From an uncultured Methanosarcinaceae archaeon (lineage in GTDB: Archaea; Halobacteriota; Methanosarcinia; Methanosarcinales; Methanosarcinaceae): a stretch of DNA of 64,000 nucleotides. The DNA lies in NCBI GenBank assembly GCA_963733675.1, contig CAVTET010000005.1:281908-345907 (forward strand), in the 5' to 3' direction. The first letter of the stretch is position 1. Every line of letters begins with the position of its first letter. Both the position numbers and the translations under genes were made by a program. Shown here piece by piece: positions 11,761 to 43,889 of this stretch. The notes beneath the pieces were generated by a model, which was given only the letters and a program-made list of their open reading frames with translations, ran no database searches and was not told the DNA's origin.

Positions 11761-12204
11761 TCATATAATTAGTAAAATTTTAAATAAGTAATAAAAGGCT
11801 CTGTACATACTTACACTATTTTAAACTCAATTCTTAAATTAAGTTAAATATATTTTGGGCTTTTCCATAACTATCAGCTGAGTGTCACGCAAGAAAAGCT
11901 CTAGCTAAAGCAATTTATTGAAATTCCACGATTACTTAACTTTATACCATTGCCAAATTATTTCTCGAGAATTGTTTTATAGTCATATCTAGGCGATCGA
12001 TAATTGAATCTGCTCCTGAAAATTTTACGGCATGTTATATATTTCTCATATCAATGAACATATCAATATTTTAGATTCAAATATTCTCTTTTGGGGAAAA
12101 GTAAGGCGTTGCGGTTATTTTGCAAAGTTAGGCTACAATTACCTCAGAGGATAAAATTAATCTGAAGGCAGCTCTATTAAGGAAAAATGAAATTCCGATT
12201 AAAA

Positions 12205-12590
12205 GTTAAACTATTGAACTCTTTACTTTCTCTAACTTGAACGAACTTTGCTAAAATTTTTTTTCTAATTTCATCTTCGTCTTTGACAATTATCACCACA
12301 TTTTCTTTTTAGTTTCTGAAATTGTATTAATTTTCCTATACCTACGCCTTCCGTAATCATTAGGGAACCGTCTCTCCAAAATCCACATGCAAATCTGGCA
12401 GTTTCTTTTATCAGCTGCATTATTCAACCGCTGTAAACATTTTAAAGCTCCTTCTGCATTGTATTTTTTGATATGCTTATAGAACTCAAAATATTCTCAA
12501 GATGATGAATTTTTCCCTTTATTCATCCAGTCATTGAAAGTCTGATACGTTATTCTGCTGATGCTGCTGCTAAAGCATAAACAAGTCCAA
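12205..12590 (-). pseudogene. Terminase-small-subunit-like HTH protein relic, copy 1
   Basis: Manual translation GLVYALAA...ITYQTFNDWMNKGK...NAEGALKCLQRLNNAA...CQICMWILERRFPNDYGRR, with stop and frameshifts; homologous to 27470-27680. Confidence 0.55.
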
Positions 12591-12631
12591 TAAAGAAACA
12601 TCTAATGATAGCTATTTTCATACTAAATTTC

Positions 12632-14038: not shown

Positions 14039-14864
14039 AATTTTCACCCCTAGATATAAATTACAAATCTTCTGCTTCTCATTGTATCACTCAAGAACAA
14101 AGGAAAAATAAGTAGCATTTGAGCATCGGGTTAAGCTTTTCATAATTTATTTTTCCCATTAATTATCTTGTATATTCTTTTTTAGTAATTTTGGGGGGAA
14201 AGACTATATAGAAAATCTATCTGAATCACCTTAAAGAAGAGGAACATGTGTATAAGATTATAAGTTCAAATTAATGAAAATTCGTTATTTCATATAATTC
14301 ATACACAGCCTATTTTTATAAAAACTTTGTGGATTTATCTAACATATAGGACTTCTACAAAATACATTCTAACAATAAAGTTAAAATCTGTTCTTATAAG
14401 AAGTTACTAATAAAACCATCTTTGGTTGTATCTATCAACTGTTGATAAGATTTGAAAAAATATATATCCCTCATATTGATAAAAACATTTAGAAATTTGT
14501 GGGTATATATTTTTCATTAACTCGCCTCCATAACCAAAAGTTGTTTTACTGCTAAATTCGATCATATGCCTATGATTATACATGACTCGTAAAAATTAGA
14601 GATTTCTCGAAATCCAGTATAAATAAGTTTGGAATTATTAAAGCCTTTAAAAGTGTAATTGATTCGTGAATTCACTTTTTATACAAAAGTTATTACTTTC
14701 CCAAATGAAGAAAGTAGTTTAATTAATTGGAATGAAATTCCATTTTCTTTCAAAACTGGAAAAAACAAGAAAAGTGATAAGATTCTTTTTTGAAATCGAT
14801 TATATAAGTTGTCAAATTGTTTTAAAATTACCTCGTTTTTGTTACAAGAGATCGAATTATAAAA

Positions 14865-16019
14865 TCATTTTCTATATGCAAACAGAATTTTTGTAACGAT
14901 CTCATTCCAATCATATTTTTTGGCTTTACAAAAGGCTCTCTCAACAGCCTCTTTATAATTAATATCCTCTTGAATTATTTTTTTTATACCGTCTTTAACT
15001 TCATCTGCATCCAGTTTTACAACAAATCCATCCAGCTCATCATCAACCAATTCCTGTGCTGCGTTGTATCTTTCCGTTACCGTCACCACAGGCACTCCGC
15101 AGGCAAAAGCATCTATTACAACCATTCCGAAACCTTCTCTGCTGGAAGGTAGAACAAGAACCTTGGAAGCCTTGATTTTTTCGATGAGCACACGATACTC
15201 TTGAAAGCCTACAAACTCGAAGTTTCCACTAACTCTAAGCTCTTTTACAAGCTCCATAAGCTCTGCTTTTTCGGTCCCTTCACCAACAATGCAGCATCTG
15301 ATATTCGGAAAATCCACTTTAAGGAGGACCACAGCTTTAACCAGGACATCAACATTTTTTTCCTTAATGATCCTACCTACAAAAATCACGTCGTAGATTT
15401 TTGCATCTAGCCCTGCATAAGTTATGCCGCCTTCAGATTCGATCTCATTAATTATTTCAAGATCTATCCCATTAGGGATAACAGTAATCTTTTCTTCAGG
15501 AACCCCAAGTGTTTCAAGCCTCTTCTTCGTCCAGTCCGAAACTGCTATGTTTTTATCCGAAATTTTTGAAACATATTTCTCGATGACTTTTCCGAAAAAA
15601 CCAGCCTTTCCCAAATATTCATACCAGTAGTCACCCCAAACTTCATGCCATGTGAACACCGAAGGAGTTTTTTTCAGAACTGAGATCACTTTTGTGGTGA
15701 AACATGGAAAATATGGAAATACACTCACATCTATAAGGTCCATTTTTTCCTGCTGGAGATGAGAAAACAATTTCACTGAGAAAATAAGTGCTTCGGAGAT
15801 TGATCTTCTTCCGTTTACATACAGTTCCATAGCTTTGCAAACACCATGTAAGGTCATACCTTCATACTCAATAGTATCTTTTCCTTCCCACCACTTGATC
15901 CCAAAAATATGCACTTCATGCCCCTTGGCCGAGAGCCGCTTCCCTAATTCATGGATACGTCTTTCTGCACCGCCTTTGATCCATGGATATACAGCGTCGT
16001 ATACAAAAGCTATTTTCAT
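14865..16019 (-). CDS. GT4-family glycosyltransferase
   Basis: MKIAFVYDAVYPWIKGGAERR, IPNGID, EGFGMVVIDAFACG. Confidence 0.92.
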   Translation of the reverse strand: MKIAFVYDAVYPWIKGGAERRIHELGKRLSAKGHEVHIFGIKWWEGKDTIEYEGMTLHGVCKAMELYVNGRRSISEALIFSVKLFSHLQQEKMDLIDVSVFPYFPCFTTKVISVLKKTPSVFTWHEVWGDYWYEYLGKAGFFGKVIEKYVSKISDKNIAVSDWTKKRLETLGVPEEKITVIPNGIDLEIINEIESEGGITYAGLDAKIYDVIFVGRIIKEKNVDVLVKAVVLLKVDFPNIRCCIVGEGTEKAELMELVKELRVSGNFEFVGFQEYRVLIEKIKASKVLVLPSSREGFGMVVIDAFACGVPVVTVTERYNAAQELVDDELDGFVVKLDADEVKDGIKKIIQEDINYKEAVERAFCKAKKYDWNEIVTKILFAYRK

Positions 16020-16030
16020 TGTATCACTTA

Positions 16031-17155
16031 TTAGTCTGCATCCACTTCCAGTAGCATTACGCTAATAAAAATTGCAGAAAAGATTAGTTGAAGCCCAATT
16101 GCAGCAAGAACCATTGAAATAACGGCCGATTCCACCTCTTTAAGAGAACCAAATCCAGAAATGATCCAAGTATAGGCGACTTTCAGCCCAAGAATAATGC
16201 CAATCCCCAAGATAATGGAACCTACAAATAGTTCTTTTTCGAGGGAATGGTAGTTCAGGAACTTTTTACTTTTTTTGTCAACTTGGTACATGCCGTGGAT
16301 CAGGCCATAAGTTTTCATATACCCACCAGTAGCAAGAGTTTGTCCGCCAATTATTAAAAGCATACTACCTAAAATAAATGAGTGGGATCTGTTATATGCA
16401 GCGCTTTCCGTGAAAAGAAGGGACGAAGTTATTAAAAAACCCAGGATAAACACAAAAGCACCTGGTAAATATAGGAAAGGAACTGGCCTGTAGAGCATCA
16501 TGAAGCGGACATGTCTCCAGCCATCCTTGAAGGAGTTCAGCTTGGAAGGAGCCCTGCGTGAGTAATAGGTTATAGGGACTTCTTTGATCTTCAGTCCACA
16601 TTTAGCGGCTTCTATTACCATTTCGGAAGCTAACTCCATTCCATGAGTTTTAAGATTCATTTTTTCAAGTGCTTCTTTTGTAAAAGCTCTCATTCCACAA
16701 TGAGCATCCGATATTTTTGTCTTGAATAGAAAATTAAGCATTTCAGTCAATAAAGGATTGCCTATGTATTGATGCAGCCAAGGCATAGCTTCTTTTTTTA
16801 TTTCGCCTTTGATTCTGGTCCCTATTACAAAGTCTGCATCTCCAGCCATGAGAGGGTCCAAAAATTTATCAAGCTCGAGCAAATCGTATGTATTGTCTGC
16901 ATCGGAAATAGCAATATAGTTCCCCTTTGCCAGAGCAAATCCTTTGAGGTAAGCGTTCCCATATCCCTTTATTGGGCCGATTACCTTTGCACCCATAGCC
17001 ACTGCGATATCAGCTGTTCTGTCTGATGAGTTATCAGCGACTATTATCTCTCCATCTATGTTATATTTTTTTAATATGTATTGAGCTTTCTCTATACAAA
17101 TTCGGATGGTTTCTTCTTCATTCATTGAAGGCATTACGAAAGATAGAGAGGGCAT
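16031..17155 (-). CDS. GT2 dolichol-phosphate glycosyltransferase-like protein with C-terminal TM helices
   Basis: VMPSMNEE, ADNSSD, DADNTYD, DAHCGMR, four C-terminal TM segments; start uncertain (17155-17203). Confidence 0.9.
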   Translation of the reverse strand: MPSLSFVMPSMNEEETIRICIEKAQYILKKYNIDGEIIVADNSSDRTADIAVAMGAKVIGPIKGYGNAYLKGFALAKGNYIAISDADNTYDLLELDKFLDPLMAGDADFVIGTRIKGEIKKEAMPWLHQYIGNPLLTEMLNFLFKTKISDAHCGMRAFTKEALEKMNLKTHGMELASEMVIEAAKCGLKIKEVPITYYSRRAPSKLNSFKDGWRHVRFMMLYRPVPFLYLPGAFVFILGFLITSSLLFTESAAYNRSHSFILGSMLLIIGGQTLATGGYMKTYGLIHGMYQVDKKSKKFLNYHSLEKELFVGSIILGIGIILGLKVAYTWIISGFGSLKEVESAVISMVLAAIGLQLIFSAIFISVMLLEVDAD

Positions 17156-17971
17156 GTTCAGTTTATACAGCATACTTCCTAATAAATATTTTGACCCATA
17201 CAAATATTTTCAAATCTCTCCATTTCAGGAATCATTTCTAAAATAAGAATAAAATAAAAAAATAGTAACTGAAAATAAAGGATTATTGATTCGGAAAACG
17301 AAAAGTGACTACGCTATTTGTATGGACACTTCATTTTACTCAATATACGTTCTGAACTATTTTGTATCGTTGGTATATACAACTTTATTAGATAAAGCAA
17401 ATTAGGGCCATCAGAAGTTCTTAAGTTTTCATTTCATGCTACAACATCTTCTACAAAATATCCTGAATTCGCAATTAAATATCTAAAGTCAAAAACACCA
17501 AAAATAAGCATTCATTTGATGCTATTTTAATGATATAATACAATTTTATATTGAAAACATTATTTCTTAATTCACCCTTGTTTTGACGGTTGAATAAAGC
17601 GAATTACCTTTTTATGTTTATTTGTTCCAATGAAAACAAACAAAGACACGTATTTTTATTTTACAGGCAAAGTTGGGCTATAACATGAAGAAATGATGAT
17701 TCGGAACTCGTTAAAACAAAGATTAAATTTTGAGACACTAGTTCCAAAGAATTATTGACCGTCTCCACAAGTTATTGATCAAATCTGAAGAATGGATGTC
17801 TTTCTCATTTTTTGAAAAAAATATCGAGAGATTTTTATGTTATGATTTTATAATAAATAACGTCGACATTCGAATTATTTATTAGACTTTGTATAAAAAA
17901 TAGGCATAATATGGGCTTTATCGAAATCTCTATAATTTTTTGATATGGCTTTTGGGCCATATGTTATTTTT

Positions 17972-25318: not shown

Positions 25319-26152
25319 GCAAAAATTTAGTTTCACAGCAAAGAACATAAAAAAGCAGAATATTGCTCAGATAAAATCTAGATTTAGACAGCTATTTCGA
25401 ATAACTTGTTTATAATATTGACTCCAGAAAGAACAAAGCTATTTAAAGTGTCAACCTATCCTTTTCTTATCATATGCATGATTTCGATTCCTTCTAAAGT
25501 CTTATTAGCAGATCGAAAAGACTGAAATCCTAACATTGGATTAACGATTCTCTTTATAGATCTGTGATCTTGTTCTATAATGTTATTCAAATACTTGATT
25601 TGTCGAATGCCTATGTTTTTAGGTAGTATTTTATCAATTTTTAGTTTATCTATAGCAGGTGGATAACCTGGATTCTTATCAACGGTTATTACTCTTGGAA
25701 TTTGATTATGATTAGAACTTAAAGCTTTCTTAAAGAATCTCTTCGCTGTTTTTCTATCTCGTTTTGAACTTAACATGAAATCAATTGTATCCCCATTTGA
25801 GTCAACTGCTTGGTAAAAATATTTCCATTTACCTTTTACTTTGATATAGGTTTCATCAACTCTCCACGAATAGTTTGTTAGTCTTAAATGTCTTCTGATC
25901 TTCTTTTCTAGTTCAGGGGAATATTGATGTACCCATCTCATTATAGTACTGTTATCAACTTGAATTCCTCTTTCTATCATCATTTCCTTTAAATTTCTAT
26001 AGCTCAGTGGATATTTTAAGTACCATCTTACATTCAATAGGATAATTTCTCCTTCATAATGCTTCCATTTAAAGGAATTAGATAGCATATTACTATCTTT
26101 GGTTTTCTTTTTATTCTATTGTATCGATCTCATATTTTCTTGTAAAGGAACC
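25319..26152 (-). mobile_element. IS6-family element, copy 1 (right IR truncated)
   Basis: Left end GGTTCCTTTACAAG at 26152; residual TTTTTGC at 25319-25325; contains a transposase. Confidence 0.85.
25384..26088 (-). CDS. IS6 transposase with in-frame TAG at 25456-25458 (truncated, or amber read-through)
   Basis: WRVDETYIKVKG, ITVDKN, NNIIEQDHR; the frame continues past TAG to TAA 25384, giving 234 aa like copy 2. Confidence 0.85.
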
Positions 26153-26203
26153 CTATACTATACTAAACTATACTTACTATACTAAACTATACTATATTAC
26201 TCT
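26153..26203. repeat. (CTATA)n-like pentamer microsatellite
   Basis: ctatactatactaaactatacttactatactaaactatactatattactcta, between the IS6 end and the TPR start. Confidence 0.8.
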
Positions 26204-26256
26204 AAATGATACTTAATAATCAGTTAAGTGATTTAATTTAAACTGAGGATTTTGTT

Positions 26257-27462
26257 ATGGAAGAAAAGAATGCAAAAGAAGCTGAAGAACAGTTTAAGCT
26301 TGCTCTGAAAATCAATCCAAATGATGCAGATATATACTGCAGTTACGGAGATTTACTAGCAGAAATGGAGCGATGGGAAGAAGCTGAAGAACAGTATAAA
26401 ATTGCTATGGATCTCGACCCAAATGATGCAGATATACACTGCAGTTATGGAGATCTGCTAGCAGAAATGGAGCGATGGGAAGAAGCTGAAGAACAGTATA
26501 AAATTGCTATGGATCTCGACCCAAATGATGCAGATATACACTGCAGTTATGGAGATCTGCTAGCAGAAATGGAGCGATGGGAAGAAGCTGAAGAACAGTA
26601 TAAAATTGCTATGGATCTCGACCCAAATGATGCAGATATACACTGCAGTTATGGAGATCTGCTAGCAGAAATGGAGCGATGGGAAGAAGCTGAAGAACAG
26701 TATAAAATTGCTATGGATCTCGACCCAAATGATGCAGATATACACTGCAGTTACGGAGATTTGCTAGCAGAAATGGAGCGATGGGAAGAAGCTGAAGAGC
26801 AGTATAAAATTGCTATGGATCTCGACCCAAATGATGCAGATATACACTGCAGTTACGGAGATTTACTAGCAGAAATGGAGCGATGGGAAGAAGCTGAAGA
26901 ACAGTATAAAATTGCTATGGATCTCGACACAAATGATGCAGATATACACTGCAGTTATGGAGATTTACTAGCAGAAATGGAGCGATGGGAAGAAGCTGAA
27001 GAACAGTATAAAATTGCTATGGATCTCGACCCAAATGATGCAGATATACACTGCAGTTATGGAGATCTGCTAGCAGAAATGGAGCGATGGGAAGAAGCTG
27101 AAGAACAGTATAAAATTGCTATGGATCTCGACACAAATGATGCAGATATACACTGTAATTATGGAGATCTGCTAGCAGAAATGGAGCGATGGGAAGAAGC
27201 TGAAGAACAGTATAAAATTGCTATGGATCTCGACACAAATGATGCAGATATACACTGCAGTTATGGAGATCTGCTAGCAGAAATGGAGCGATGGGAAGAA
27301 GCTGAAGAACAGTATAAAATTGCTATGGATCTCGACCCAAATGATGCAGATATACACTGCAGTTACGGAGATTTGCTAGCAGAAATGGAGCGCAACAAAG
27401 AAGCTGAAGAACAGTATAAAATTGCTATGAAAATCAATCCAAATAATGAAAACTCACACTAA
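26257..27462 (+). CDS. TPR protein built of about 11 near-identical 34-aa repeats
   Basis: 102-bp tandem unit encoding DPNDADIHCSYGDLLAEMERWEEAEEQYKIAMDL; GAGG upstream. Confidence 0.9.
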   Translation: MEEKNAKEAEEQFKLALKINPNDADIYCSYGDLLAEMERWEEAEEQYKIAMDLDPNDADIHCSYGDLLAEMERWEEAEEQYKIAMDLDPNDADIHCSYGDLLAEMERWEEAEEQYKIAMDLDPNDADIHCSYGDLLAEMERWEEAEEQYKIAMDLDPNDADIHCSYGDLLAEMERWEEAEEQYKIAMDLDPNDADIHCSYGDLLAEMERWEEAEEQYKIAMDLDTNDADIHCSYGDLLAEMERWEEAEEQYKIAMDLDPNDADIHCSYGDLLAEMERWEEAEEQYKIAMDLDTNDADIHCNYGDLLAEMERWEEAEEQYKIAMDLDTNDADIHCSYGDLLAEMERWEEAEEQYKIAMDLDPNDADIHCSYGDLLAEMERNKEAEEQYKIAMKINPNNENSH

Positions 27463-27469
27463 CTAATCG

Positions 27470-27680
27470 GTGAAAATATTGCTTTAGGGCTCACATATTC
27501 TTTGGCTGTCGAAGCTGCTGGAATCACATAGAAGACGTACAATGAATGGATGAAGAAAGATCAGACAGAAATATGGGAAATATTACCATCTTTTCAAATA
27601 TATTCAAAGATGTAATGCTGATGGTGCTAGGAAACTTTTGGAACGCCTAAACGAAGCAGCAAAAGCTGGTGGCACTCAAG
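27470..27680 (+). pseudogene. Terminase-small-subunit-like HTH protein relic, copy 2
   Basis: ENIALGLTYSLAVEAAGIT*KTYNEWMKK...YIQRCNADGARKLLERLNEAAKAG; aligns with the 12205-12590 relic. Confidence 0.55.
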
Positions 27681-27809
27681 AATGATGATGAAGCCCCATG
27701 GAACAATATGCCTCGAAACATCAACTCCTCGCAGATCCCTACCATTAAAGTATTGATGATTACAAACATAAGAACCTTGGTTTGTGGAAGATCCGCAAAT
27801 AAAACCAAC

Positions 27810-28663
27810 GGTTCCGTTGCAAAAATCCTTTCTAATGATACAATAGAATAAAAAGAAAACCAAAGATAGTAATATGCTATCTAATTCCTTTAAATGGAAG
27901 CATTATGAAGGGGAAATTATCTTATTGAATGTAAGATGGTACTTAAAATATCCACTGAGCTATAGAAATTTAAAGGAAATGATGGCAGAAAGGGGAGTAA
28001 AAGTCGACCATACAACAATCATGAGATGGGTACATCAATATTCCCCTGAAATAGAAAAGAAGATAAGAAGACATTTAAGACCAACAAATGATTCGTGGAG
28101 AGTTGATGAAACCTATATCAAAGTAAAAGGTAAATGGAAATATTTTTACCGAGCAGTTGACTCAAATGGAGATACAATTGATTTCATGTTAAGTTCAAAA
28201 CGAGATAGAAAAACAGCGAAGAGATTCTTTAAGAAAGCTTTAAGTTCTAATCATAGTCAAATTCCAAGAGTAATAACCGTTGATAAGAATCCAGCTTATC
28301 CACCTGCTATAGATAAACTAAAAATTGATAAAATACTACCTAAAAACGTAGGCATTCGACAAATCAAGTATTTGAATAACATTATAGAACAAGATCACAG
28401 ATCTATAAAGAGAATCGTTAATCCAATGTTAGGATTTCAGTCTTTTCGATCTGCTAATAAGACTTTAAAAGGAATTGAAGCTATAAATATGATCAAAAAA
28501 GGACAAGTAATCGATCTAAATTACTATGTTCTTAATGAAGTCAAATACATTAATCAATTATTTGGTATAGTTTTATAATGTTAGTACATTTTCCTTGAAT
28601 GTTTTGATTTTTATTAATCACTTATAGATTTACATATTTTGTTGAAGTTTTTGCAACGGAACC
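27810..28663 (+). mobile_element. IS6-family element, copy 2 (complete, 854 bp)
   Basis: Perfect 16-bp IRs GGTTCCGTTGCAAAAA / TTTTTGCAACGGAACC; no flanking direct repeat seen. Confidence 0.95.
27874..28578 (+). CDS. IS6 family DDE transposase
   Basis: FKWKHY, WRVDETY, NNIIEQDHR; 234 aa. Confidence 0.95.
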   Translation: MLSNSFKWKHYEGEIILLNVRWYLKYPLSYRNLKEMMAERGVKVDHTTIMRWVHQYSPEIEKKIRRHLRPTNDSWRVDETYIKVKGKWKYFYRAVDSNGDTIDFMLSSKRDRKTAKRFFKKALSSNHSQIPRVITVDKNPAYPPAIDKLKIDKILPKNVGIRQIKYLNNIIEQDHRSIKRIVNPMLGFQSFRSANKTLKGIEAINMIKKGQVIDLNYYVLNEVKYINQLFGIVL

Positions 28664-29407: not shown

Positions 29408-29980
29408 GTCATATTTACAAACATGTGGATCAAATGACTAATAATAGATCCACTGACTTAAAGGTTTTTGATCTTTCTTGTCATGAACCAATAATATTAA
29501 TATCTGTTTTAGTAGAGTAGATAGTCTCTGGTGATAATTCTAGAGATAGATTAAAGGGTGGTAACAAACCAAAAGATAGCAGAGATGGCTAAGTACCTGG
29601 TAGAATAATAAACCTACGTAGAGAATGAAAGAAGAAAACACACTTTGGATAAATATAATCACAGAAAGTATTCAAAAATTTGACTTCAAATTTTCATAAC
29701 TTCACTACATTTGACCATATCATTCTGTTAATATTGTTTGCTTTTTCATGTAGTTCATAACTATTTTGGAAATAATAATTGATTTGAAAAATTGGTCGTT
29801 TTCTATAATTTAGTTGTTACTCTAACACATGTTTTAATAAAAATTATGTTTTATCTACACAATTAGGTCAAAATATCCGATTATTTAGGCTGAAAATGAG
29901 AAAATGCAGAGATTTAATCACAAAAAACGATGTATAATTAAATATTGATTGTGTCGTTAGTGAGGTAATCAAATAGGTAC

Positions 29981-30100
29981 TTTAAAGCTTATTTCTTTTT
30001 GAGATTTTTGATTTATGCTTGTGGTTTAGTTTAATTCGTTCCAGATGTTCCATGAGCTCCAAATGTTCTATGAGTCCCAGAAGCTCCATGAGTAATAGAT
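29981..30100 (-). repeat. Dispersed EHL repeat, copy A, containing an intact 35-aa ORF (29982-30089)
   Basis: MELLGLIEHLELMEHLERIKLNHKHKSKISKRNKL*; DNA similar to copies at 36.2, 37.8, 38.4 and 60.8 kb. Confidence 0.8.
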
Positions 30101-30413
30101 AGTATCTGGTGTGTCCCTTTCCATTGAATCTTTATAACAAGGGTTGAAATAACGGTATATTCTAAATTTTTTTCAACTTCCACTGTTTTTCTTTCCAGCT
30201 GGGTAAGTTCTATAATATTTTTTGTACGTTTGAGAGCGTCTAGTTTTTAACACACTAGGCATTTTTAAAATATATCTAATTATATATACACAAACATTCT
30301 ATTATTAAGAAGTTTTGATTATACTGATATATATTACATTTAAAAATCTTGTATTTTGGCATTTAGCCTAGGCTTTAGTAAAATATCAAAATAATATTTA
30401 AAAGACGATCTAT

Positions 30414-32378
30414 ATGGAAATGAAGTATAAAGTATTCTTTTTATTAATCAGCGTGATTTTACTGTCGGGAACTGCACTTGCAACAACTCTGACCTTGAAA
30501 TCTGCGGCACAGCCATATTACATTGATCCTCAGCATAATTTGTGGCTCAGAGTTAACATGAACGGCGGCACACAACATTTCAATGTGTACAATGCGCCTG
30601 GCTACTACCCTAATGGGGATGCGGTCATGTGGGCATACGATAACTTTAGCTCAGGCAGCTTAAATAAATCAAAGTGGACAGCTTACAAAGAAGGAAGCAA
30701 TAGGTCAACAGTAGAAATACAGAATGGACATTTGGTATTGTCAGGCTCTAGCAACACATCTTCTGCAAATGTTGTGCTTAATAAACCATTTACAAATGGC
30801 ATTGAATTGGCAGTCAATGAAACATTAGCAGGGGGTACTCATGATGTTGGCACTTTTACTGATGTTTCTTTTGGTGCAGGTACACTCGTAGGTGGGATAA
30901 GGGGAACAGATTGGTGGCATACAAGATTCGCTACAGGTGGGGGCTCATTCCAAAGCCAGGGAATATATAATGCGATGATTTGGGCAAACTCAAACAGTTT
31001 GGATGTTAGTATGCCCACTCCTGGAATCAGATTAAGCGATTACGTAGAAGAGGGTATTCCACATACATTGGCATATAGTTATGATGCTTCTGGTAACGCA
31101 AATATGTACATGGTAAATATAACTCAAAATCGCCTTCCTTTATCTATCCCTGATCCATACGGGTATAATCAGTTTAATCACCCATCTATCTATTTTAGTG
31201 AGACTGGTGTATTTGGTCACAAATGGTGGATGTTTGTTACACCATATGCATACTCTAACGATATATATGAAAATGCATGTTTGTACTATTCTGATGATGG
31301 ATTAGTTTGGCATGTACCACCTGGAGTGAAAAATCCTATAGGAACGCCAATAAAATCTGAGTATAACTCAAATGCCTATGGTGCTGATCCCTATGGTTCT
31401 GATCCGCATGGTTCTGATCCTTATGGCTCTGATTCTCATCTCATATACAATCCTGATACCGGAAAATTTATGCTCTACTATGTAATTGGAGATGTAAGGG
31501 GTAATGAAACCGTAGAAGACCCTAAAGTCAAAATATATGATGGTATTACTATTTCACCAGAAATAAATGTCACAGCTCATGGTGTATCACCCGCTGTTCT
31601 CTATGATAAAGCCACAAAAACGTATTACATGTGGATTGTTGATATTGATCCTACTCCACATGTAATCTATAGATATACATCCACTGATGGTATACATTTT
31701 GGTAATAAACAATATGTGAGTCAATCAAGTCCTTATTATCCTTGGCATATTAATGTGATAACTTATCCAGGTAAATCGACAATATATGCATTACTTACAA
31801 TGTATAGTAATGAAGGATTCACCAATAATCTGCATCTAGCTACTGCAAACAATTACACAGATAATTTTACAGTTCAAAGCTCACCACTTCTAAAACTAAA
31901 GGACTCATCATGTGCAACACATAAAGATGCTCTATTATACCGTAGTGCAGGTGTATTTAGCGATGATGGAAAGCTCTTAAGACTCTGGATACCTGCACAA
32001 GATACTCTAGGAGCTTGGACTGTGTTTTACACTCAAGCAACTGAGAAAAATGGTGTATGGAAAGTTGGAGAGTTTACAACTCCCCGCGTACCACTTATGA
32101 CAATCAAAAATACACAATATCTTTATACCCCAAAACAGTGGATGCTATCACAAGGCGATTCACCAAAAAGTCATGGAGTCAAAAGAGAAATCAATGAAGT
32201 TTGGGGATATAAAACAGGTCACACACCAAAAATAAACGCAAAAAATATGGGAACATATACTCAAATTGATGTTAAGCCAACCGATTTACAAAACGTGTCT
32301 AATTACCAGGTAATGATCCCTGCTAGTATGCTTAACATATCATCAAAGAGCGAGTCTCTGGATGTAGAGCGTGCATAA
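30414..32378 (+). CDS. Secreted protein with a beta-propeller glycoside-hydrolase-like domain and DUF2341/lectin-like flanks
   Basis: Signal peptide (..SGTALA); QFNHPS, KWWMFVTPY, YENACLYYSDDGLVW, STDGIHF (Asp-box-like); NGDAV..YDNF....LNKSKW. Confidence 0.7.
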   Translation: MEMKYKVFFLLISVILLSGTALATTLTLKSAAQPYYIDPQHNLWLRVNMNGGTQHFNVYNAPGYYPNGDAVMWAYDNFSSGSLNKSKWTAYKEGSNRSTVEIQNGHLVLSGSSNTSSANVVLNKPFTNGIELAVNETLAGGTHDVGTFTDVSFGAGTLVGGIRGTDWWHTRFATGGGSFQSQGIYNAMIWANSNSLDVSMPTPGIRLSDYVEEGIPHTLAYSYDASGNANMYMVNITQNRLPLSIPDPYGYNQFNHPSIYFSETGVFGHKWWMFVTPYAYSNDIYENACLYYSDDGLVWHVPPGVKNPIGTPIKSEYNSNAYGADPYGSDPHGSDPYGSDSHLIYNPDTGKFMLYYVIGDVRGNETVEDPKVKIYDGITISPEINVTAHGVSPAVLYDKATKTYYMWIVDIDPTPHVIYRYTSTDGIHFGNKQYVSQSSPYYPWHINVITYPGKSTIYALLTMYSNEGFTNNLHLATANNYTDNFTVQSSPLLKLKDSSCATHKDALLYRSAGVFSDDGKLLRLWIPAQDTLGAWTVFYTQATEKNGVWKVGEFTTPRVPLMTIKNTQYLYTPKQWMLSQGDSPKSHGVKREINEVWGYKTGHTPKINAKNMGTYTQIDVKPTDLQNVSNYQVMIPASMLNISSKSESLDVERA

Positions 32379-32730
32379 GTGCAAAAATGTTAGGATATTA
32401 TAAAATATCTTATTATAAAATATCCTAATGTTATAAAGATAATCAGATATAATGCTGCTGTTAAAGTATCTGGTTTACCATCATTTTCATCCATTTTTTT
32501 CGTTCCGTGACATGACCATTATTCAGCACTTAATCGAAGATGTATGGTAACTTTTTATAACATGTTATTATTGACTTTTCGGATAGGTTTTTAGAGAAAA
32601 ACAAAAAGTAAAGTTATTTTGGAACTTTATTTATATTAACTAAATTAATTTACTTAAGAAGTAGACGATGTTCCCACATCTCCAGAAGTCTGTGAGCTTG
32701 TAGATGAGATGAGTTTAGATATGCTGGTGT

Positions 32731-33060
32731 TTATGTAGCTGGTTTTGTTTCTGGATCTTTTGATGCTGTTTCTGGAAATAGAGTTGCTCCTGCAAGATTT
32801 GGACTTGGATCTGGAGCTTTTGCGGGCTCTGCAGGTGCTGTAGTTTGAATGGTATATGGCATTCCCGAGTATGCAGGGCAAAGCCAATTATTACCACCCA
32901 CCCACATACAACCCGGACCAGAGCCCCACCGGGGTCCACCCCAGCCCCAGCGACCGCCGCCGTGTGCACTAGCTGCCACTGTTGTCACAGATAATACAAA
33001 AAGTACTGCCAACAAAATGGTCAGTATCCTTTTTAATCTACTCACTTTTTGTTTCAACAT
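32731..33060 (-). CDS. Small secreted Gly/Trp-rich protein P1 (shared-leader family)
   Basis: MLKQKVSRLKRILTILLAVLFVLSVTTVAASA|HGGGRWGWGG...GCMWVGGNNWLC; the tail may originally have extended to about 32654. Confidence 0.8.
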   Translation of the reverse strand: MLKQKVSRLKRILTILLAVLFVLSVTTVAASAHGGGRWGWGGPRWGSGPGCMWVGGNNWLCPAYSGMPYTIQTTAPAEPAKAPDPSPNLAGATLFPETASKDPETKPAT

Positions 33061-33587
33061 TCAACTCATTCCTTTCTTTTTAGATTTGATACAATCTTAA
33101 TCTGGCTATAAAACAATTTGTTGAAATCAGAGGTTTATTTTAACTTTCTTAAGGCTGTATGATGAACTTATATTTAGCATTTTTCTTTTATTTAATTGCA
33201 CTTTATGCTATTAAAGTTAAAAATTGTGTTATTTACTATAAAAAAAGAATTTAGATATGTTACTAATTGAACAATCATTCATCAAAACAATTAAATTAAA
33301 CCTATAAACTTTGAATTGTTATACTTCTTTTATTCACTACTTGTTTTTATTCATGGACTTAATTATTATTACAATTCACATTTTGATTCAAAATGCAATG
33401 CTTCTCTCGGATCTGTGCAAGATGGGAGTAAAGCTGTACTTATGAATATAATTGAAAATTGTCCGAAAAAGTAATATAAATATATATATATGTAATACTG
33501 GACAAACTTATGAAGTTAAACTAATACTAGGTCAGAATAAATATTTCAGCTCAGAACCATAGGAAATTAGTTAGGGGAATAGAAAAA

Positions 33588-34312
33588 ATGCACATCTCAG
33601 ATGGATATTTAGGGCCGCATACGTATATTGCGTTTTGGATCATCATGATCCCGATATGGTATTATGCTGGACAGAAACTGAGCACAGAGCTCAAATCCAA
33701 ACAGGTATCACTGCTAGCGCTATCAGCTGCGTTTTCATTTGTAATAATGATGTTCAATATCCCTGTTCCAGGTGGCAGCACAGGCCATGCCATAGGTGGT
33801 GGAATTATCGCTATAGTCATAGGTCCCTGGGCAGCAATTATAGCTATATCTGTAACTTTGGTATTGCAAGCAATGATTTTCGGTGATGGTGGAATAACAG
33901 CCATAGCCACTAACTGCTTTAATATGGGAGTGGTAGTACCCTTTGTCGCTTACTACGCCTATAAGCTTATTAGCGGAAATTCAGAGATTACAGCTTCTAA
34001 AAGGGTTATTGCTGCGGCCATCGCTGGCTGGGTTTCTCTGACCATGGCATCTTTTTGTGTGGGCATTGAATTAGGAATACAACCAATTTTAGAGCACACA
34101 GCTGATGGAGCTCCACTTTATATGCCATATACTTGGAGTGTAAATGTTCCTCCATGGTATTTGAACATGCTTTGGCATTCAGCATTCTTGAAGCACTGAT
34201 TACAGCAATTATTTTTGCCTATATCCAGAGAACAAATACATCTGTATTTTATGGAGAGAAATCTGAAGCTGAAATTAACAGAATAGAAATAATGAATGGA
34301 GTCACAATCTGA
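33588..34312 (+). pseudogene. cbiM: CbiM/NikM ECF Co/Ni substrate component with a 1-bp frameshift near 34150
   Basis: MHISDGYL N-terminus, GGSTGHAIG, FGDGGITA; the shifted frame MVFEHALAFSILEALIT... ends at TGA 34312. Confidence 0.88.
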
Positions 34313-34321
34313 GGTGAGAAT

Positions 34322-34645
34322 GTGGATAAGATTATAAGAAACTTATCTATTGGCTTGATATTATTGATCATATTTGCGCCTTTAGGTCTGCTTGCGGCAG
34401 GCACTGCATATGGTGAATGGGTACCAGATGAGCTTAAGGATCGTATCGGGTTTGTGCCACATGGGTTGGAAGAGCTCTCTGATTTATGGCATGCACCATT
34501 GCAGGATTATAACATTCCCCCCACTCCTTCTTTTAAGGATTCGAAGCTGGTATCTTCTGCAGGATACATTTTGTCTGCAGTAATCGGTGTAATAGTTAGT
34601 GGCGGTTTTTTATATTTTATTGGAAAGAAGGCAACTAAACACTAA
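34322..34645 (+). CDS. PDGLE-domain (CbiN/NikN-like) membrane protein
   Basis: APLGLLAAGTAYGEW, LWHAPLQDY, GYILSAVIG; directly follows cbiM. Confidence 0.85.
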   Translation: MDKIIRNLSIGLILLIIFAPLGLLAAGTAYGEWVPDELKDRIGFVPHGLEELSDLWHAPLQDYNIPPTPSFKDSKLVSSAGYILSAVIGVIVSGGFLYFIGKKATKH

Positions 34646-35366
34646 AAGATTAATCACGTTTAGAATCATGACGATCCAAATTTGAATTTTTTTAGAAATG
34701 AAACGAGATATATTGGGTCTAAAAAGGCTCAAATACTTGATTTATTGGTTAGATTTCCTGCATGCACGAAGACTGGATATATCATGAATAGAGTAGGCCC
34801 AATATTGTGCCAATTTGAAAAATAGTAGATTGGAAGGACGGAGTGATAAACTCCTTCCATAAAATGTGGTATTTTGTTTAAAAAACCTGAAATACCAGCT
34901 GCCTGAACTATAGATACGGAATTCCATCACCATAGGTTCAATGAATGACTTCAGGTTCTCGTATTTTTGATGTTTTTTAGATAAACATCTGAATGTATAA
35001 CAACTTCATATTTAACATTTTTCATTATTTTCTTCATATTTTATGTTATTAGGCTTAAAACTCATATTACTTGTTTTATTTTGAATCAATCATTATTTCA
35101 ATTTACCTTAGTTTCTGAGTTATTATTCATCATATATTATAAAGCATAAACTAAATATATTCTAACAAGTAGATGGATAATTATACAAATATTTAAATAA
35201 TAAAGTATAGTTAACTTCTAACTTGTTTCCATTTATTTTTTTTAAGCTAGATTCTTTAAAATCATAACGCTTTTTAACAACGATTTGGGATTGGGAATAA
35301 ATGGAAAAAAGAACAGCTTTCCAAAGATAATATAAAGTGCAAAAAATTTAGGAGTGTTATACAAAG

Positions 35367-35681
35367 ATGGGGAAACAAAAATTTAATAGAATGAAAACAA
35401 TACTTAGAATTCTCATGTTAGTCTTTGCAATAGTGCCATTGATAACAGTGTCAGCGAGCGCAGCTTCTGGTTCTGATGATCGTGGTTACAGTGGTCATGG
35501 TGACCATGGTCATGGTGGCTGGGGAGGACCTGGTTGGGGAGGACCTGGGTTCGGATTTTACCCACCTGCACCTTATGGGGATAGCGGGGATAGCGAGGTA
35601 GTCTGCGGACCTTATGGATGCTATTGGAATGAAGCCACAGCATACCTTCCCAAGGCTGTAATAGCCGAGCAAGGTTGGTAA
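35367..35681 (+). CDS. Small secreted Gly/His/Trp-rich protein P2 (shared-leader family)
   Basis: MGKQKFNRMKTILRILMLVFAIVPLITVSASA|...GHGDHGHGGWGGPGWGGPG...CGPYGCYW; AGGAGTG RBS. Confidence 0.8.
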   Translation: MGKQKFNRMKTILRILMLVFAIVPLITVSASAASGSDDRGYSGHGDHGHGGWGGPGWGGPGFGFYPPAPYGDSGDSEVVCGPYGCYWNEATAYLPKAVIAEQGW

Positions 35682-36167
35682 AATAAACAGTTATTTCGCC
35701 AACGATCTCAATCAATGACTAATTAAAGCGTGAAAAGGAAACAACATTTGGTATCCGCTTGTAACCATAAAAATAGATTGGACTGAAAAAAGCCGACTTA
35801 CTAAAAATTAAATACATCTACGTTTTGCTATACTTTTCAGTTTGTGGGTGTGGTACTAATGAATAAAATATTAAGGGAAAGTTCACGCTTCGAACAGATG
35901 ACATTAAACCCCATACATCAATGAGAAAATAAAAAAAGACATTTGTCCGTAAAGATATTGGCTTTTCATTAATTTAAAAGAAAAACAAAATAATAATTGC
36001 GGAAGAGGATAAAAAGGGCAATATCGATAACCTTAAAGAATATCGTTATTGCCCTAGAAATTAAGTGACTAATCCCTTTTTATTATCCATGGAGATAATA
36101 CCTACAAAAATGAAGTTAACAACAATAAAGTATTCTTTGTACAGTTGATGGGATTTTCAACCCGATG

Positions 36168-36355
36168 CTTTAAAGCTTATTCTTTCCTGATGTTTTCTTT
36201 TTATGCTTTTGGTTTAGTTAATTAGTTCCAAGTGTTCCAGGAGTTCCAGATGTTATATGAGTCCCAACAGCTCCATGAGTCAGAGATCGATAAAGTTTTC
36301 TTACTATTGATGACATTTAGGAAATCCAGAGATTTAATCACTAAAACTATGTATA
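36168..36355 (-). repeat. Dispersed EHL repeat, copy B
   Basis: Same core as copy A plus flanking gaaatccagagatttaatcactaaaac; ORF degenerate. Confidence 0.8.
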
Positions 36356-36469
36356 AAAAAGTAAAAGTGAGAATTTGGATAATTCTCAATTCTCAAAATT
36401 AGTCGTGAAATATTTGCGTATAGGATTACGTATTAGGGAGCGCTTTCATTCACTGCTCACTCTTTTACA

Positions 36470-36760
36470 TTAGGCGCCTTCTGGAGTACCTGGTGATCTG
36501 TGACGATATAATATATCAATGTCACCGGTATTAATACCACTTGGTTCGTCGGTAAATGCAGGTTCGCCACCTTCCCAATATGCAGGAACATCGGTGGTAA
36601 TGGTGTAACCTGGCTGATCGCTATCGTAGTAGGTATGATAGTTACTACCGGCATAGTATCCTTGTGCACTTGCTGCCACTGTTGTCAAAGGCAAAACAAA
36701 AAAGCCTATCAGCAAAACAGCGAGTACCTTCTTCATTCCACTAGATAATTGTTTCAACAT
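36470..36760 (-). CDS. Small secreted Tyr/Asp-rich protein P3 (shared-leader family)
   Basis: MLKQLSSGMKKVLAVLLIGFFVLPLTTVAASA|QGYYAGSNYHTYY...; AGGAGTGA RBS. Confidence 0.8.
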   Translation of the reverse strand: MLKQLSSGMKKVLAVLLIGFFVLPLTTVAASAQGYYAGSNYHTYYDSDQPGYTITTDVPAYWEGGEPAFTDEPSGINTGDIDILYRHRSPGTPEGA

Positions 36761-37079
36761 ATATCTCACTCCTTTTGTGATATCTACAACAAAATTTTTA
36801 GATTATGTTGTTGAATCATGTATATCTCTTAAAAGAGTTATTTTAAATTATTTATAAAAAATATAGTTTCTAAACAAAAAGTCTTTCCAAACCGAATATT
36901 TTAAGATTGAACAACAATTAAATATAAATCATGTATTATTATAATTTAGAAATAAATACTGTTTCATTGCTCATTTTTTCAAAAAAATCAAAATTTAGTG
37001 TAAGTTTATATTTATAGATAATTATATTATATATGTTATATACTTCCATATCTCAAACCGTGAAGGATCATAATCTACG

Positions 37080-37115
37080 ATACATAGATTTAATCACAAA
37101 ACCTCTGTATCAATG
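37080..37115 (-). repeat. Partial EHL-repeat flank motif
   Basis: catagatttaatcacaaaacctctgtatca matches motifs at 29901, 36321 and 37908. Confidence 0.55.
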
Positions 37116-37309
37116 AACCCTGGATTTATTATATGATCATAAAAAGAAGTCGATTTAGTCCTAAAAAAGAGATAAATTAAAGGTCTTACTCTTATAAAGT
37201 ATCTATCGTGATTTTTTATACAACTCGGTGTAGGATTACATAAATAGTAAGACCCATAGCTACATTTTAGTTACATTTTTCAATTTGTGCAGTTTTGTTA
37301 TTATTACCA

Positions 37310-37565
37310 TTAACAGATCCATTCCCATTCTTGGTAGTCAGGGTTCCACGCCCAACAGTCATCATGATGATGGTGATGCCAATGATCGTGATCGTCGTGG
37401 TCATGATGGTTCCAATGGTCGTGGTCATTATGATTCCAGGTCGTGGTCATTATGGCCCCAATTGTCGTGGTCATGATATGGTTCAGCGCTTGACGCTGCT
37501 ACAGTAAATGATACTACAAATAGAACTGCCAGCAAAATAGTCAGTAACTTTTTAACTCTGCTCAT
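37310..37565 (-). pseudogene. Secreted His/Asp/Trp-rich peptide P4 (shared-leader family), 2-bp frameshift near 37440
   Basis: AGGAG RBS; MSRVKKLLTILLAVLFVVSFTVAASSA|EPYHDHDNWGHNDHD/WNHNDHDHWNHHDHDDHDHWHHHHHDDCWAWNPDYQEWEWIC*; 24-bp internal repeats. Confidence 0.8.
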
Positions 37566-37769
37566 TGAAGTTTATCTCCTTTCTTAATGATTAATTTTAT
37601 TGTTTTTCGAGACTTATTTACTTTTAAACTATTTACATATTTTGATATTTTAGATGTCAGTTTTCTCGTATAGCTTAGCCATTATAAGAAATATTCAAGA
37701 AGAAATCAAAAAAGAGCTTGATATCTTCGACACTATCTATATTTTAGTTTTGTTTAGATTACTATCTCA

Positions 37770-37945
37770 TTATTTTTTTCTGACATTTTTTATTTATGCT
37801 TGTGGTTTCGTTTAATTAGTTCCAAGTGTTCCCTGAGCTCCATCTGTTCTATAAGCTCCATGAGTCATAGATCAATAACCTTTTCTCATTTCGTGTAGAA
37901 CTTGGGAAATGCATAGATTTTACTACAAAAAACTCTGCATCATTG
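37770..37945 (-). repeat. Dispersed EHL repeat, copy C
   Basis: Reads MELIEQMELREHLELIKRNHKHK*; lacks one 9-bp unit relative to copy A. Confidence 0.8.
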
Positions 37946-37965
37946 GAAAGGATAAAAAAGGAACA

Positions 37966-38310
37966 TTATTTTTCGAAATTTCTTATTTTCGTAGGTCTTG
38001 CTAGCTTATAATCTACCTTCGTAAGCTTATCACAAATATCTTCCCGCCTGCCATTGTATCCTTTGCTGTACTTCTCCACCTTCGCTCTGAATTCTACAAG
38101 ATCACCGGGTTTTAAATCGGCCTGCTTAAAGCCTTTGGTCATATTGAACCATAGATGATCAGTAACTATCTGTCCGGGCTAATCTTTTACGTCTTTCAAT
38201 AAGACTGTAACACTATTGCCTTTATAATTGGATTTGATACCCGTTCTGACAAATTCCCCAGTATAAAGATCGCTCGTTCCTTCATTGGCTCCTAATGCTT
38301 TACGAGCTTG
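37966..38310 (-). pseudogene. Phage-like hypothetical protein with an in-frame TAG (38179-38181)
   Basis: RKALGAN...YTGEFVRTGIKSNYKG...VLLKDVKD*PGQIVTDHLWFNMTKGF...GDLVEFRAKVEKYSKGY...DYKLARPTKI*. Confidence 0.6.
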
Positions 38311-38325
38311 ATTTTTCTATTTGCA

Positions 38326-38450
38326 ATGGTTGTTTGGGCTAATTAATTTCAAGTGTTGCAGGAGCCCCAGATGTTCTATGAGTTCCATAAGCTCCAAGAG
38401 TAATAGATTATCAATGCTTCCTTATTACTGATGGAACTTAGGAAATTGAT
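38326..38450 (-). repeat. Dispersed EHL repeat, copy D
   Basis: Reads LELMELIEHLGLLQHLKLI...; flank gatggaacttaggaaat shared with other copies. Confidence 0.75.
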
Positions 38451-38548
38451 ATTTTGACATATTTTATTTTCATTGTGTATATGTTAGCAGTATACTTGGC
38501 TGTGTCTGATATACAGGATGATCAATGAATTACATCAAATTGTTCGCT

Positions 38549-39259
38549 TTAGAATTGTTCATCTGGGAATTGTCCACCTGGGATTCCGTTTAGGTATTGT
38601 TCACCTGGGAACAATCCACCTTGGAATCTTCCGCCTTGATTTTGTTTACTTGGGTATTGTCCGTTTTGGTTTTGTCCACTAGTGTATTGTCCGTTTTGGT
38701 TTTGTTCACCCGAGTATTTTTGGGTTTTATGTTGTCCAGTTAGCATGGGTTTATTTTTACCCTGCTGAATAAGAGCTCGATCAATAATTCTTTCAAACCT
38801 GTTTTTATTTCCAGCGTTTAATCCAATAATCCTGGCTTGTGACCTATCTAAAGTATTATTTCCATCGTCATTTATGTAAACGTATTTTCCGTCTTTTGTA
38901 CCAACAATCACGAAAGCATCAGGAAGGTTGTACCCACCAAAATATTTTGCAAGTTCTGGACTCTGATATATATCAATAGACGCGATTGTAGCTTTCCCTT
39001 TGTATTCTACCGCGAGTTTTTCAAGAATAGGCTTCGTTTGTTGGCATGGTTTACAAGACTGAGCTTTCATCTCTACAAAAACCGGTCCTTTATGCAGAAA
39101 TGTGTTTATCTGCTCAAGCTGAGTTATTTCCACAACACTGTCGTGATCATACATACCATCGTAAGCATTTACTGCCATTGCTGTTACTGATGTTACTACA
39201 AAGATCATCAGTAAAATGCATAGTATTTTTTTTGTTTTGTTAAAGATTTGTTTATCCAT
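38549..39259 (-). CDS. Secreted thioredoxin-fold protein (CKPC) with Gln/Gly-rich C-terminal repeats
   Basis: Leader MDKQIFNKTKKILCILLMIFVVTSVTAMAVNA; SCKPCQQTKPILEKLA; QNQNGQY tandem repeats. Confidence 0.85.
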   Translation of the reverse strand: MDKQIFNKTKKILCILLMIFVVTSVTAMAVNAYDGMYDHDSVVEITQLEQINTFLHKGPVFVEMKAQSCKPCQQTKPILEKLAVEYKGKATIASIDIYQSPELAKYFGGYNLPDAFVIVGTKDGKYVYINDDGNNTLDRSQARIIGLNAGNKNRFERIIDRALIQQGKNKPMLTGQHKTQKYSGEQNQNGQYTSGQNQNGQYPSKQNQGGRFQGGLFPGEQYLNGIPGGQFPDEQF

Positions 39260-39636
39260 TGTGTACACTTTAAACTTTTTAGCTTCCTTACTTAATAAAC
39301 TTTTTTATTAGTTTTCGTCTTAAAATATGTTCTTTTCTTTTCGATATACAACCACAACCCGCATTTGTTCAGCATTCCACAGCACTTTTGAGTTCTTCTA
39401 TTTGTCTATTTTTTGATAATATTATATGTATCATTTAGGGACAAGATTCCGAAATATGTAACTCGAAGAGATTAAATGATATATTGAGTTTGTTTTGACT
39501 ACCTTTATAATAATCGCACCGAAATATAACTATTTGCAAATGATTATATTATCATGCGCTTGATAGTATATCTTTTTTAATAAAATAATGGCTAATAAGT
39601 CACTTTTAATTGAAAAAATACTGAGAAGGAATTTAT

Positions 39637-40273
39637 TTGTCATTAAAAGATACAACACCTAAAGAACTTGACTTTCTTGTAAAAAAAGCTTTGGAACTAG
39701 AAGCTATTGATGCAAAAATAATTCCAATTTGTAAAATCTTTGTAGAGAGAAGAGTGATTTTGAAATGCAGAGGTTGTTTAGGATACGGGAAAAAACTTAC
39801 CTGTCCACCCCACGTTCCTACTGTTGATAAATTTCGGGAGACACTCAAGGAATATAGGTATGCGTTACTTGTTAAATTCATGTCTTCTGCAATTGCAGAT
39901 GAAGAGATTGCCCAAGCTCCATACAGAACCCCGGCTTGATCCCGCAATGCCTGAGGAAATAAGAGAAAAGGCAGCAAAGTTCTGGGCAGATCATTATGAT
40001 CACAGCGATAAAATAATGCTCTCAATGCTCGAGCTTGAAAAGACAGTTTTCAATGAAGGTTACACCTTTGCAATCGCATTTGTGAACGGTGCCTGCAGGC
40101 TATGTGAAAAATGCAATGTAGACAAAGGAATCTGTCTTCACTCGAATATGGCAAGAATCCCAGAACATGGAGTTGGGATCAACATGAAGAAAACCGCTGC
40201 AGAATCAGATATGCCTATAGTGTTTCCTATCAAAGAAAAACCTGAATCAATGGCTATTCTATTGATTGACTAA
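39637..40273 (+). pseudogene. DUF2284-like Cys-rich metal-binding protein, frameshifted near 39935
   Basis: LKCRGCLGYGKKLTCPP in the first frame; GACRLCEKC...CLH...RIPEHGVGI in the second. Confidence 0.8.
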
Positions 40274-40448
40274 AACTATCAATTATAACTAAATATTAAT
40301 TGGGTATTAACTAATTTTAATTTAGGACTTACACAATTGAGATGTAAAATTAAGTACAATAAACAATATGGTTTAATGTTATTGATTTTTCATCTCACCG
40401 AGTAATTTCTACTGATGATAAATTCAATTTCTTTGATATATGGTCTAA

Positions 40449-41465: not shown

Positions 41466-43889
<2,424 letters not shown>

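Follow-up and report, generated by a model that had tools for sequence, protein, structure and literature searches.

Families of secreted proteins held together by a conserved signal are already known from eukaryotes and, as lineage-specific signal peptides, from prokaryotes. Conopeptides and plant glycine-rich proteins place a conserved signal before a hypervariable mature part; YSIRK and KxYKxGKxW define lineage-specific signal-peptide families, as does TIGR04207 (halo_sig_pep), one homologous N-terminal signal borne by unrelated exported proteins of a single lineage. The mussel myticalins (PMC5577615) and MgCRP-I (PMC4558851) are described as multigene families with a conserved signal and a diverse mature part that evolve by birth and death, and the NHLP and N11P precursors of ribosomally synthesized and post-translationally modified peptides (RiPPs) as combining a conserved leader with hypervariable C-termini and paralogous expansion (PMC2887384). 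In polymorphic toxin systems, whose toxins carry a C-terminal toxin domain, the immunity gene is reported to lie directly downstream (PMC3482391). The subject of this paper is a gene family of Methanosarcina with a comparable layout: one leader, a predicted signal peptide, standing before many unrelated mature parts (cargos). Five of its genes lie in a stretch of 64,000 nucleotides (nt) of an uncultured Methanosarcinaceae archaeon (the window; assembly GCA_963733675.1, contig CAVTET010000005.1, positions 281,908 to 345,907). Documented below are the homology, range and expansion of the family, the swapping of its signal, purifying selection on and decay of its members, and its spread by block duplication.

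The family differs from each of these systems. Relative to the mussel families it is archaeal, shows no homology, has neither a fixed Cys framework nor a pro-region, carries mostly neutral or acidic cargos and also recruits folded domains. It lacks the Gly-Gly cleavage, C39 exporter and linked modifying enzymes of the NHLP and N11P precursors, and both the downstream immunity gene and the C-terminal toxin domain of polymorphic toxins. Unlike the proteins of TIGR04207, its cargos are mostly short peptides, in up to ~100 copies per genome; five of 25 leaders match that model weakly (best E-value 0.016), and P1, described below, scores 12.9 against a cut-off of 24.6. An archaeal signal-peptide multigene family of such size was not found in searches of the open-access literature, most subscription journals lying outside this coverage.

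The leader and the five genes of the window

Five genes of the window begin with the leader:

32731-33060, minus strand: P1, 109 amino acids (aa); leader at 32965-33060, then a GW-rich stretch, a Cys/Trp hairpin motif and a Pro/Ala tail; 5 intact paralogs
35367-35681, plus strand: P2, 104 aa; leader at 35367-35462, then a variable Gly/His part; 8 intact paralogs
36470-36760, minus strand: P3, 96 aa; leader at 36665-36760, then a Tyr/Asp/Thr-rich cargo without Cys; 3 paralogs
37310-37565, minus strand: P4; leader at 37485-37565, then His/Asp repeats and a Cys/Trp tail; frameshifted allele
38549-39259, minus strand: thioredoxin chimera, 236 aa, PF00085; leader at 39164-39259, then a thioredoxin domain (CKPC) and a Gln/Gly tail

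The DNA of the leaders is 0.59-0.73 identical in all six pairs among P1, P2, P3 and the thioredoxin gene (0.26-0.29 for shuffles) and 0.71 identical between P1 and P4; over the 96 nt past the leader, identity falls to 0.22-0.34, the level of chance. An initial annotation of the window had noted that the similarity is visible in the DNA and ends at the predicted cleavage site, and this is borne out; the four DNA matches that it quoted are located at 32964, 36664, 33005 and 37525. Four of its five genes (P1, P2, P3 and thioredoxin) are open frames. P4, 256 nt long, is not: its leader frame runs for 45 aa before a stop, with the Cys/Trp tail encoded in a different frame, nor does it have the MxKQ start that had been given as usual. 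The P4 allele has 22 extra nt at 37417; a related intact gene lies at C7:90261 (contig C7) of the source genome. Contigs from elsewhere were compared with the window here, those of X1, X5 and X9 from DNA and that of X17 from an RNA library. Because X1 and X5, DNA contigs of two studies, reproduce the window letter for letter over P4, the break is a real null allele of a strain. In-frame alleles exist: X9 lacks the 22 nt, and the X17 contig has 22 gap letters there. Relatives of P2, P3, P4 and the thioredoxin gene are represented in RNA-library contigs (four runs, three studies), where DNA carry-over is possible and contigs cannot prove transcription. The near-empty RNA bins at 39542-40275 were not counted as evidence, nor was RNA depth taken for a ranking of genes.

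A profile built from the five leaders was taken through three search rounds over the source genome (G000; 3.92 Mb in 15 contigs, 92% complete). The first round gave 69 matches of at least 30 bits; by the end of the third, 92 copies scored at least 25 bits and 101 at least 20. No reversed decoy reached 15 bits (maximum 11.7). These 92 copies are spread over nine of the 15 contigs, and their local clustering is partial: 34 have a neighbouring member within 3 kb (random mean 12, maximum 29, 2000 draws), while at 10 kb the excess is not significant (45 against a random mean of 34, maximum 53). The five genes of the window are thus a sample of a genome-wide family, not the special cluster that had been proposed.

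The leader has a basic n-region, a hydrophobic h-region and an AxA-type c-region, without a twin-Arg motif or lipobox. The residue at -1 is Ala in all 77 full leaders (partly by construction) and that at -3 is A, V, S or T in 72; RR occurs in two of 92 leaders and Cys at +1 in two of 77. That the leader might be just the generic Sec signal of scattered genes does not fit its scores: among 73 long soluble open reading frames (ORFs) with a signal-like start by our own rule, 61 score below 15 bits with the leader profile, including the 654-aa protein next to P1, and eight score at least 25. On this sequence evidence the leader is a homologous predicted Sec/signal peptidase I signal peptide. The leader profile matches nothing in PDB, none of the curated models of Pfam and NCBIfam describes the leader family, and P1-P4 stay below the cut-off of every Pfam and NCBIfam family; the suggestion of an undescribed family with a constant leader and variable cargos is upheld to this extent.

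Cargos, range and evolution

The 66 cargos of at least 40 aa fall into 42 families at 55% identity, of which those of P2 (8), P1 (5), P3 (3) and thioredoxin (3) have several members. Their composition is biased toward Gly (17.7 vs 7.1%), His (4.8 vs 2.0), Trp (2.6 vs 0.9), Tyr (6.1 vs 3.5) and Pro (7.5 vs 3.9). Most are neutral or acidic, with a median net charge of -1; just three of the 66 contain a candidate second membrane anchor. Exactly two Cys are present in 26 of 65 cargos, several pairs enclosing a Trp-rich hairpin motif; His occurs among the first three mature residues in 18 of 65, and 21 have a dense His tract. The P2 cargo has a conserved core of YPPAPYG and CGPYGC, invariant motifs that are kept across 26 aligned homologs; the query used here finds the core in six of 59 genomes. 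The ESM Atlas returns for P2 hypothetical clusters (<0.9) and BA14K (0.79), which serve as leads only. In databases the small members appear as 'hypothetical' or 'predicted protein', besides stray automatic labels.

Other cargos are folded proteins of surface type: beta-propellers, PKD, beta/gamma-crystallin and pentapeptide repeats. Cultured-type genomes carry the leader on Lys/Tyr/Trp-rich peptides, beta-propeller proteins and M-crystallin, and some cargos are conserved across cultured species. The domains recruited include thioredoxin, a cytochrome b5-like domain and the M-crystallin of M. acetivorans (PDB 2k1w/3hz2; locus L050, 1258-1599), which bears the family leader at 29.7 bits; it is a folded Ca-binding domain (PMC8639718) and not a low-complexity peptide. 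Its solved part (84-85 residues) begins at the predicted cleavage site. Bearing the leader, M-crystallin is predicted to be exported.

The genome search with a hidden Markov model of the five leaders that had been proposed at the outset finds the leader in 49 of 51 Methanosarcina genomes and in none of 98 genomes from 15 other genera of the family Methanosarcinaceae. Altogether, 56 of 58 Methanosarcina genomes other than G000 have it. A second, independent profile was built from 27 leaders of five other genomes because the bias of the query had to be removed. Scored on the best 133 candidates per Methanosarcina genome, it gives 77 matches in G000, 72 in G019, 70 in G155, 72 in G171 and 102 in G172, and 0-30 in the other 54. 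Outside the genus it gives four single weak matches in 171 genomes of the class; on the best 26 candidates per genome, the 288 genomes of the phylum hold no leader match at an E-value of 1e-7. A wider protein search, on which the range outside the phylum solely rests, gave 55 leader matches among 8000 scored candidates, and the two with an organism name are from Methanosarcina. The leader is nearly confined to Methanosarcina, and five related genomes show an expansion, to 70-102 copies each. The closest named relative of the thioredoxin gene (91%) is in a Methanosarcina metagenome-assembled genome from a fen, and the metagenome runs that best hold the DNA of the window are soil metagenomes (a habitat reading that sets aside runs X9-X20, with their small word shares).

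Leader and cargo evolve apart. In 113 pairs the leaders are at least 78% identical in DNA and the cargos unrelated. Leaders have a pooled dN/dS of 0.50-0.55 and alignable cargos one of 0.36 (35 paralog pairs, not independent), a ratio that points to purifying selection on the cargos. The thioredoxin domain of the window shares 60% identity with a paralog whose signal is of lipoprotein type, the b5-like cargo 57% with a signal-less ORF, and another cargo, which we take to be cupredoxin-like, 54% with a lipoprotein-type ORF; since the closest paralogs have a lipoprotein signal or none, the leader has been swapped onto existing domains. The tail of the thioredoxin gene resembles the cargos at C3:641851 and C3:543982. 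The initial annotation had seen in this gene a dedicated, co-exported disulfide oxidoreductase. The two other leader-bearing thioredoxin paralogs have their next member 24.6 and 3.8 kb away, and because neither has one within 3 kb, thioredoxin is itself a recruited cargo and not an operon partner. About a quarter of the copies are broken (cargos shorter than 30 aa in 25 of 92, at least one further copy frameshifted), the mark of birth and death; no case of a new cargo made by frameshift of another was found among the members. Two members with identical protein lie in opposite orientation on one 50-kb contig of the source genome (C13:8975-9238 and C13:42324-42587), either a recent inverted duplication or an assembly artefact.

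Part of the spread is block duplication. The features concerned in the window, beside P1 and P2, are these:

29974-30101, plus strand: EHL copy 1 (nhmmer), left edge of a duplicated 6.2-kb block
30414-32378, plus strand: 654-aa predicted secreted protein; signal peptide differs from the family leader; about 9-11 copies
33471-33498, no strand assigned: NikR-type inverted repeat, ahead of nikM by 117 nt and of P1 by 411 nt
33588-34312, plus strand: nikM-type S component (PF01891), frameshifted near 34130-34200; no Q/O genes after it
34322-34645, plus strand: PDGLE (NikN-type) protein, directly after nikM
36158-36346, plus strand: EHL copy 2 (nhmmer), right edge of the duplicated block
37748-37931, plus strand: EHL copy 3 (nhmmer)
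38307-38458, plus strand: EHL copy 4 (nhmmer)

The EHL repeat is ~190 nt long and has 80 merged sites in the source genome (nhmmer). The stretch 30250-36000 has 6-11 genome copies and its flanks have 1-4; the paralogous blocks start at 29936-30019 and end at 36188-36351, at the direct EHL copies 1 and 2. The duplicated unit (29974-36346) comprises EHL, the 654-aa protein, P1, nikMN, P2 and EHL, so that its edges are EHL repeats; P3, P4 and thioredoxin have paralogs separate from it. Genome-wide, 27 of the 80 EHL sites lie within 1 kb of a leader member, against 6.7 expected (maximum 14) for random intergenic points. The EHL repeat does not overlap the cargos and is of mixed orientation, and as a source of cargos or as an immunity ORF it was rejected. 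Halves of EHL also recur on C13, the 50-kb contig with the two identical members. Of the associations originally suggested, that with the EHL repeat holds and that with nikM holds for P1 and P2; thioredoxin is not a family-wide partner.

Possible functions of the cargos

The reading we favour, and hold tentatively, is that in this Methanosarcina multigene family one predicted Sec signal has been copied before fast-changing peptides that likely form or decorate the protein part of an extracellular matrix or coat. Methanosarcina has a thick matrix and forms protein-containing biofilms, according to the accounts consulted (PMC12369344, PMC4338226). Export through SecY and cleavage after AxA would release soluble peptides of 40-150 aa. 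Such peptides could assemble with one another through their Gly/Tyr/Trp/His/Pro repeats or attach by them to the methanochondroitin layer; small Trp hairpins would be closed by Cys pairs, and metal binding by the His tracts might be a secondary role. As a recruited member, the exported thioredoxin may service such disulfides.

Several points weigh against this. Export, cleavage and extracellular location of the members are predictions from sequence. In M. mazei, predictors are reported to over-call signal peptides, the 31 N-termini seen there showing cleavage for the S-layer protein pair alone (PMC4350412), so the leader may instead be retained as a membrane anchor. The cargos resemble eggshell, keratin-associated, elastin and spore-coat proteins in composition alone, Pfam giving only a sub-threshold match to IMCp, and one function for all 42 cargo families is unlikely. 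A search for a family-wide upstream motif (77 non-redundant upstream regions against 1255 controls) brought out only the ribosome-binding site. The expansion falls in gene-eroded genomes rich in insertion sequences (IS), in which drift could inflate any family.

A rather unlikely alternative is that the expansion is for the most part neutral: in an eroding genome, a unit of ribosome-binding site and signal, mobile or prone to duplication, would land on repeat DNA, and most products would do little. The 25 cargos of less than 30 aa and the further frameshifted copy suit it, as do the EHL sites crowded near members and an IS-type ORF with >120 copies; the cargo dN/dS of 0.36, the P2 motifs invariant in 26 homologs and the conservation of some cargos in cultured species do not. 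Cargos acting as polymorphic kin-recognition or signalling peptides that decide which cells join an aggregate would account for rapid turnover, strain-level null alleles, lineage-specific repertoires and short disulfide hairpins, yet no linked receptor is seen in 30 mapped regions and the pooled pairs give no sign of positive selection, which makes the proposal improbable. More improbable still are antagonists, whether archaeocin-like peptides or RiPP precursors, which the constant-leader/variable-core layout and the Cys pairs of 26 cargos had brought to mind. The leader is hydrophobic and Sec-type and ends in GG or GA (the Gly-Gly cleavage motif) in two of 92 copies; no C39 transporter was found in the 92% complete genome, with positive search controls; radical S-adenosylmethionine genes lie near 2 of 31 members (12.6% by chance), and the sole YcaO gene is 20 kb away. 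A co-directional ORF follows six of 66 members as against 399 of 1408 other genes (ORFs of at least 50 aa counted), the median net charge of the cargos is -1, and Pfam searches with the window genes, 21 further members of the source genome and 17 from other genomes disclose no toxin domain at the C-terminus. Neither a RiPP nor a polymorphic-toxin design agrees with the type of leader or with what was found for enzymes, exporter and immunity genes; the initial annotation had likened the five genes to polymorphic secreted peptide systems.

A further alternative is that P1, P2 and the His-rich members are secreted Ni/Co-binding peptides that feed an orphan NikMN under NikR, an adaptation to metal-poor peat. 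What had been called cbiM beside these genes is a nikM, orphan and frameshifted, preceded by a NikR-type site. An MHI[PS]DG start is a mark of NikM; the window gene has it, together with a PDGLE partner and the NikR-type site, and is 81% identical to the M gene of the complete MNQO operon in G135, but it is frameshifted and without Q/O genes. Of 22 nikM-type genes, 19 have a NikR-type site scoring 11-12 of 12 upstream, as against none of nine cbiM-type genes. That of the window resembles the delta-proteobacterial NikR site (PMC545781). Orphan nikMN/cbiMN modules without Q/O are amplified in three genomes (in G000 on contigs C1, C3, C7 and C13; loci L088-L102). Control of the whole family by NikR was rejected as a candidate, with 30 genome sites at a 16-nt spacer against 24-39 at other spacers.

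In favour of the nickel proposal, members lie within 3 kb at nine of 12 CbiM-family loci in G000, and P1 or P2 types at nine of 24 such loci in five related genomes; CbiM-family matches number 11 in G000, 8 in G155 and 7 in G172, as against 1-4 in the other 56 genomes. The NikR-type site sits between P1 and nikM. One locus of G172 (L094, 172-6550) runs nikM-P2 and then ZnuA and ATP-binding cassette genes, and one of G155 (L098, 499-6800) unites NikR, two leader genes, EHL and a full cbiMNQO, with a P1 type beside them; His near the mature N-terminus and dense His tracts would also fit. The ZepA exoprotein zincophore (PMC10957091) and NikMNQO (PMC10617489, PMC545781) likewise offer a secreted-protein gene beside a metal-regulated uptake system, as described; here no homology is seen, metal binding is only proposed, the link exists in a minority of copies and Q/O are missing. 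Only 14 of 92 members are near nikM or cbiM, and outside G000 only six of 29 P2-type and five of 16 P1-type matches are linked; His is absent from the invariant residues of P2 and from linked variants. In the window and on C1 and C3, nikM is broken beside intact peptides, and the NikR-type site precedes only four P1 copies, all linked to nikM. The P1/P2-nikM links descend from block duplications and are therefore not independent. The nickel proposal is doubtful.

Distinctly unlikely, and wider in reach, is the combination of such ideas: that peat and soil Methanosarcina hold an archaeal counterpart of the eukaryotic conserved-signal libraries, a repeat-spread export module that has recruited repeat DNA and domains into ~100 secreted products and builds the protein scaffold of the matrix, with P1/P2 as the first methanogen peptide nickel scavenger, serving a solitary NikMN. 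Little is said to be known of either the protein component of the Methanosarcina matrix or nickel acquisition in methanogens (PMC12369344, PMC10617489). The family supplies a defined list of candidates, seven members in the genetically tractable M. acetivorans, the solved M-crystallin among them, and 70-102 in the uncultured soil/peat Methanosarcina clade; its leader is a candidate native secretion tag.

Neighbouring and other features of the window

The central domain of the 654-aa protein has a confident all-beta model (pLDDT 84.5) and matches only PDB 6n1a/6n1b (profile E-value 3e-19; listed as 'carbohydrate-binding protein'). We take 6n1a to be an N-acetylgalactosamine (GalNAc) deacetylase, which a literature search did not confirm. 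Methanochondroitin is reported to contain GalNAc (PMC12369344). The protein is, for this reason and as a lead only, a candidate matrix-modifying and possibly GalNAc-acting enzyme.

An Rfam scan of the window gave no match. A scan for sigma-70 promoters and terminators stayed at chance level, being of a type unsuited to archaea. Erosion of the genome is visible in a frameshifted DUF2284 gene (39637-40273) and in a P-type ATPase divided among four ORFs (41466-43889). Positions 3690-17203 hold several GT4/GT2 glycosyltransferases, part of them fragmented, and a glutamate decarboxylase; three ORFs of 166 aa lie inside this region, at 9565-11760. At 25456-28578, two transposase-like ORFs, presumably IS6-type, lie on either side of a 401-aa protein made up of near-identical TPR repeats; the transposase-like (IS-type) ORF has >120 related copies in the source genome.

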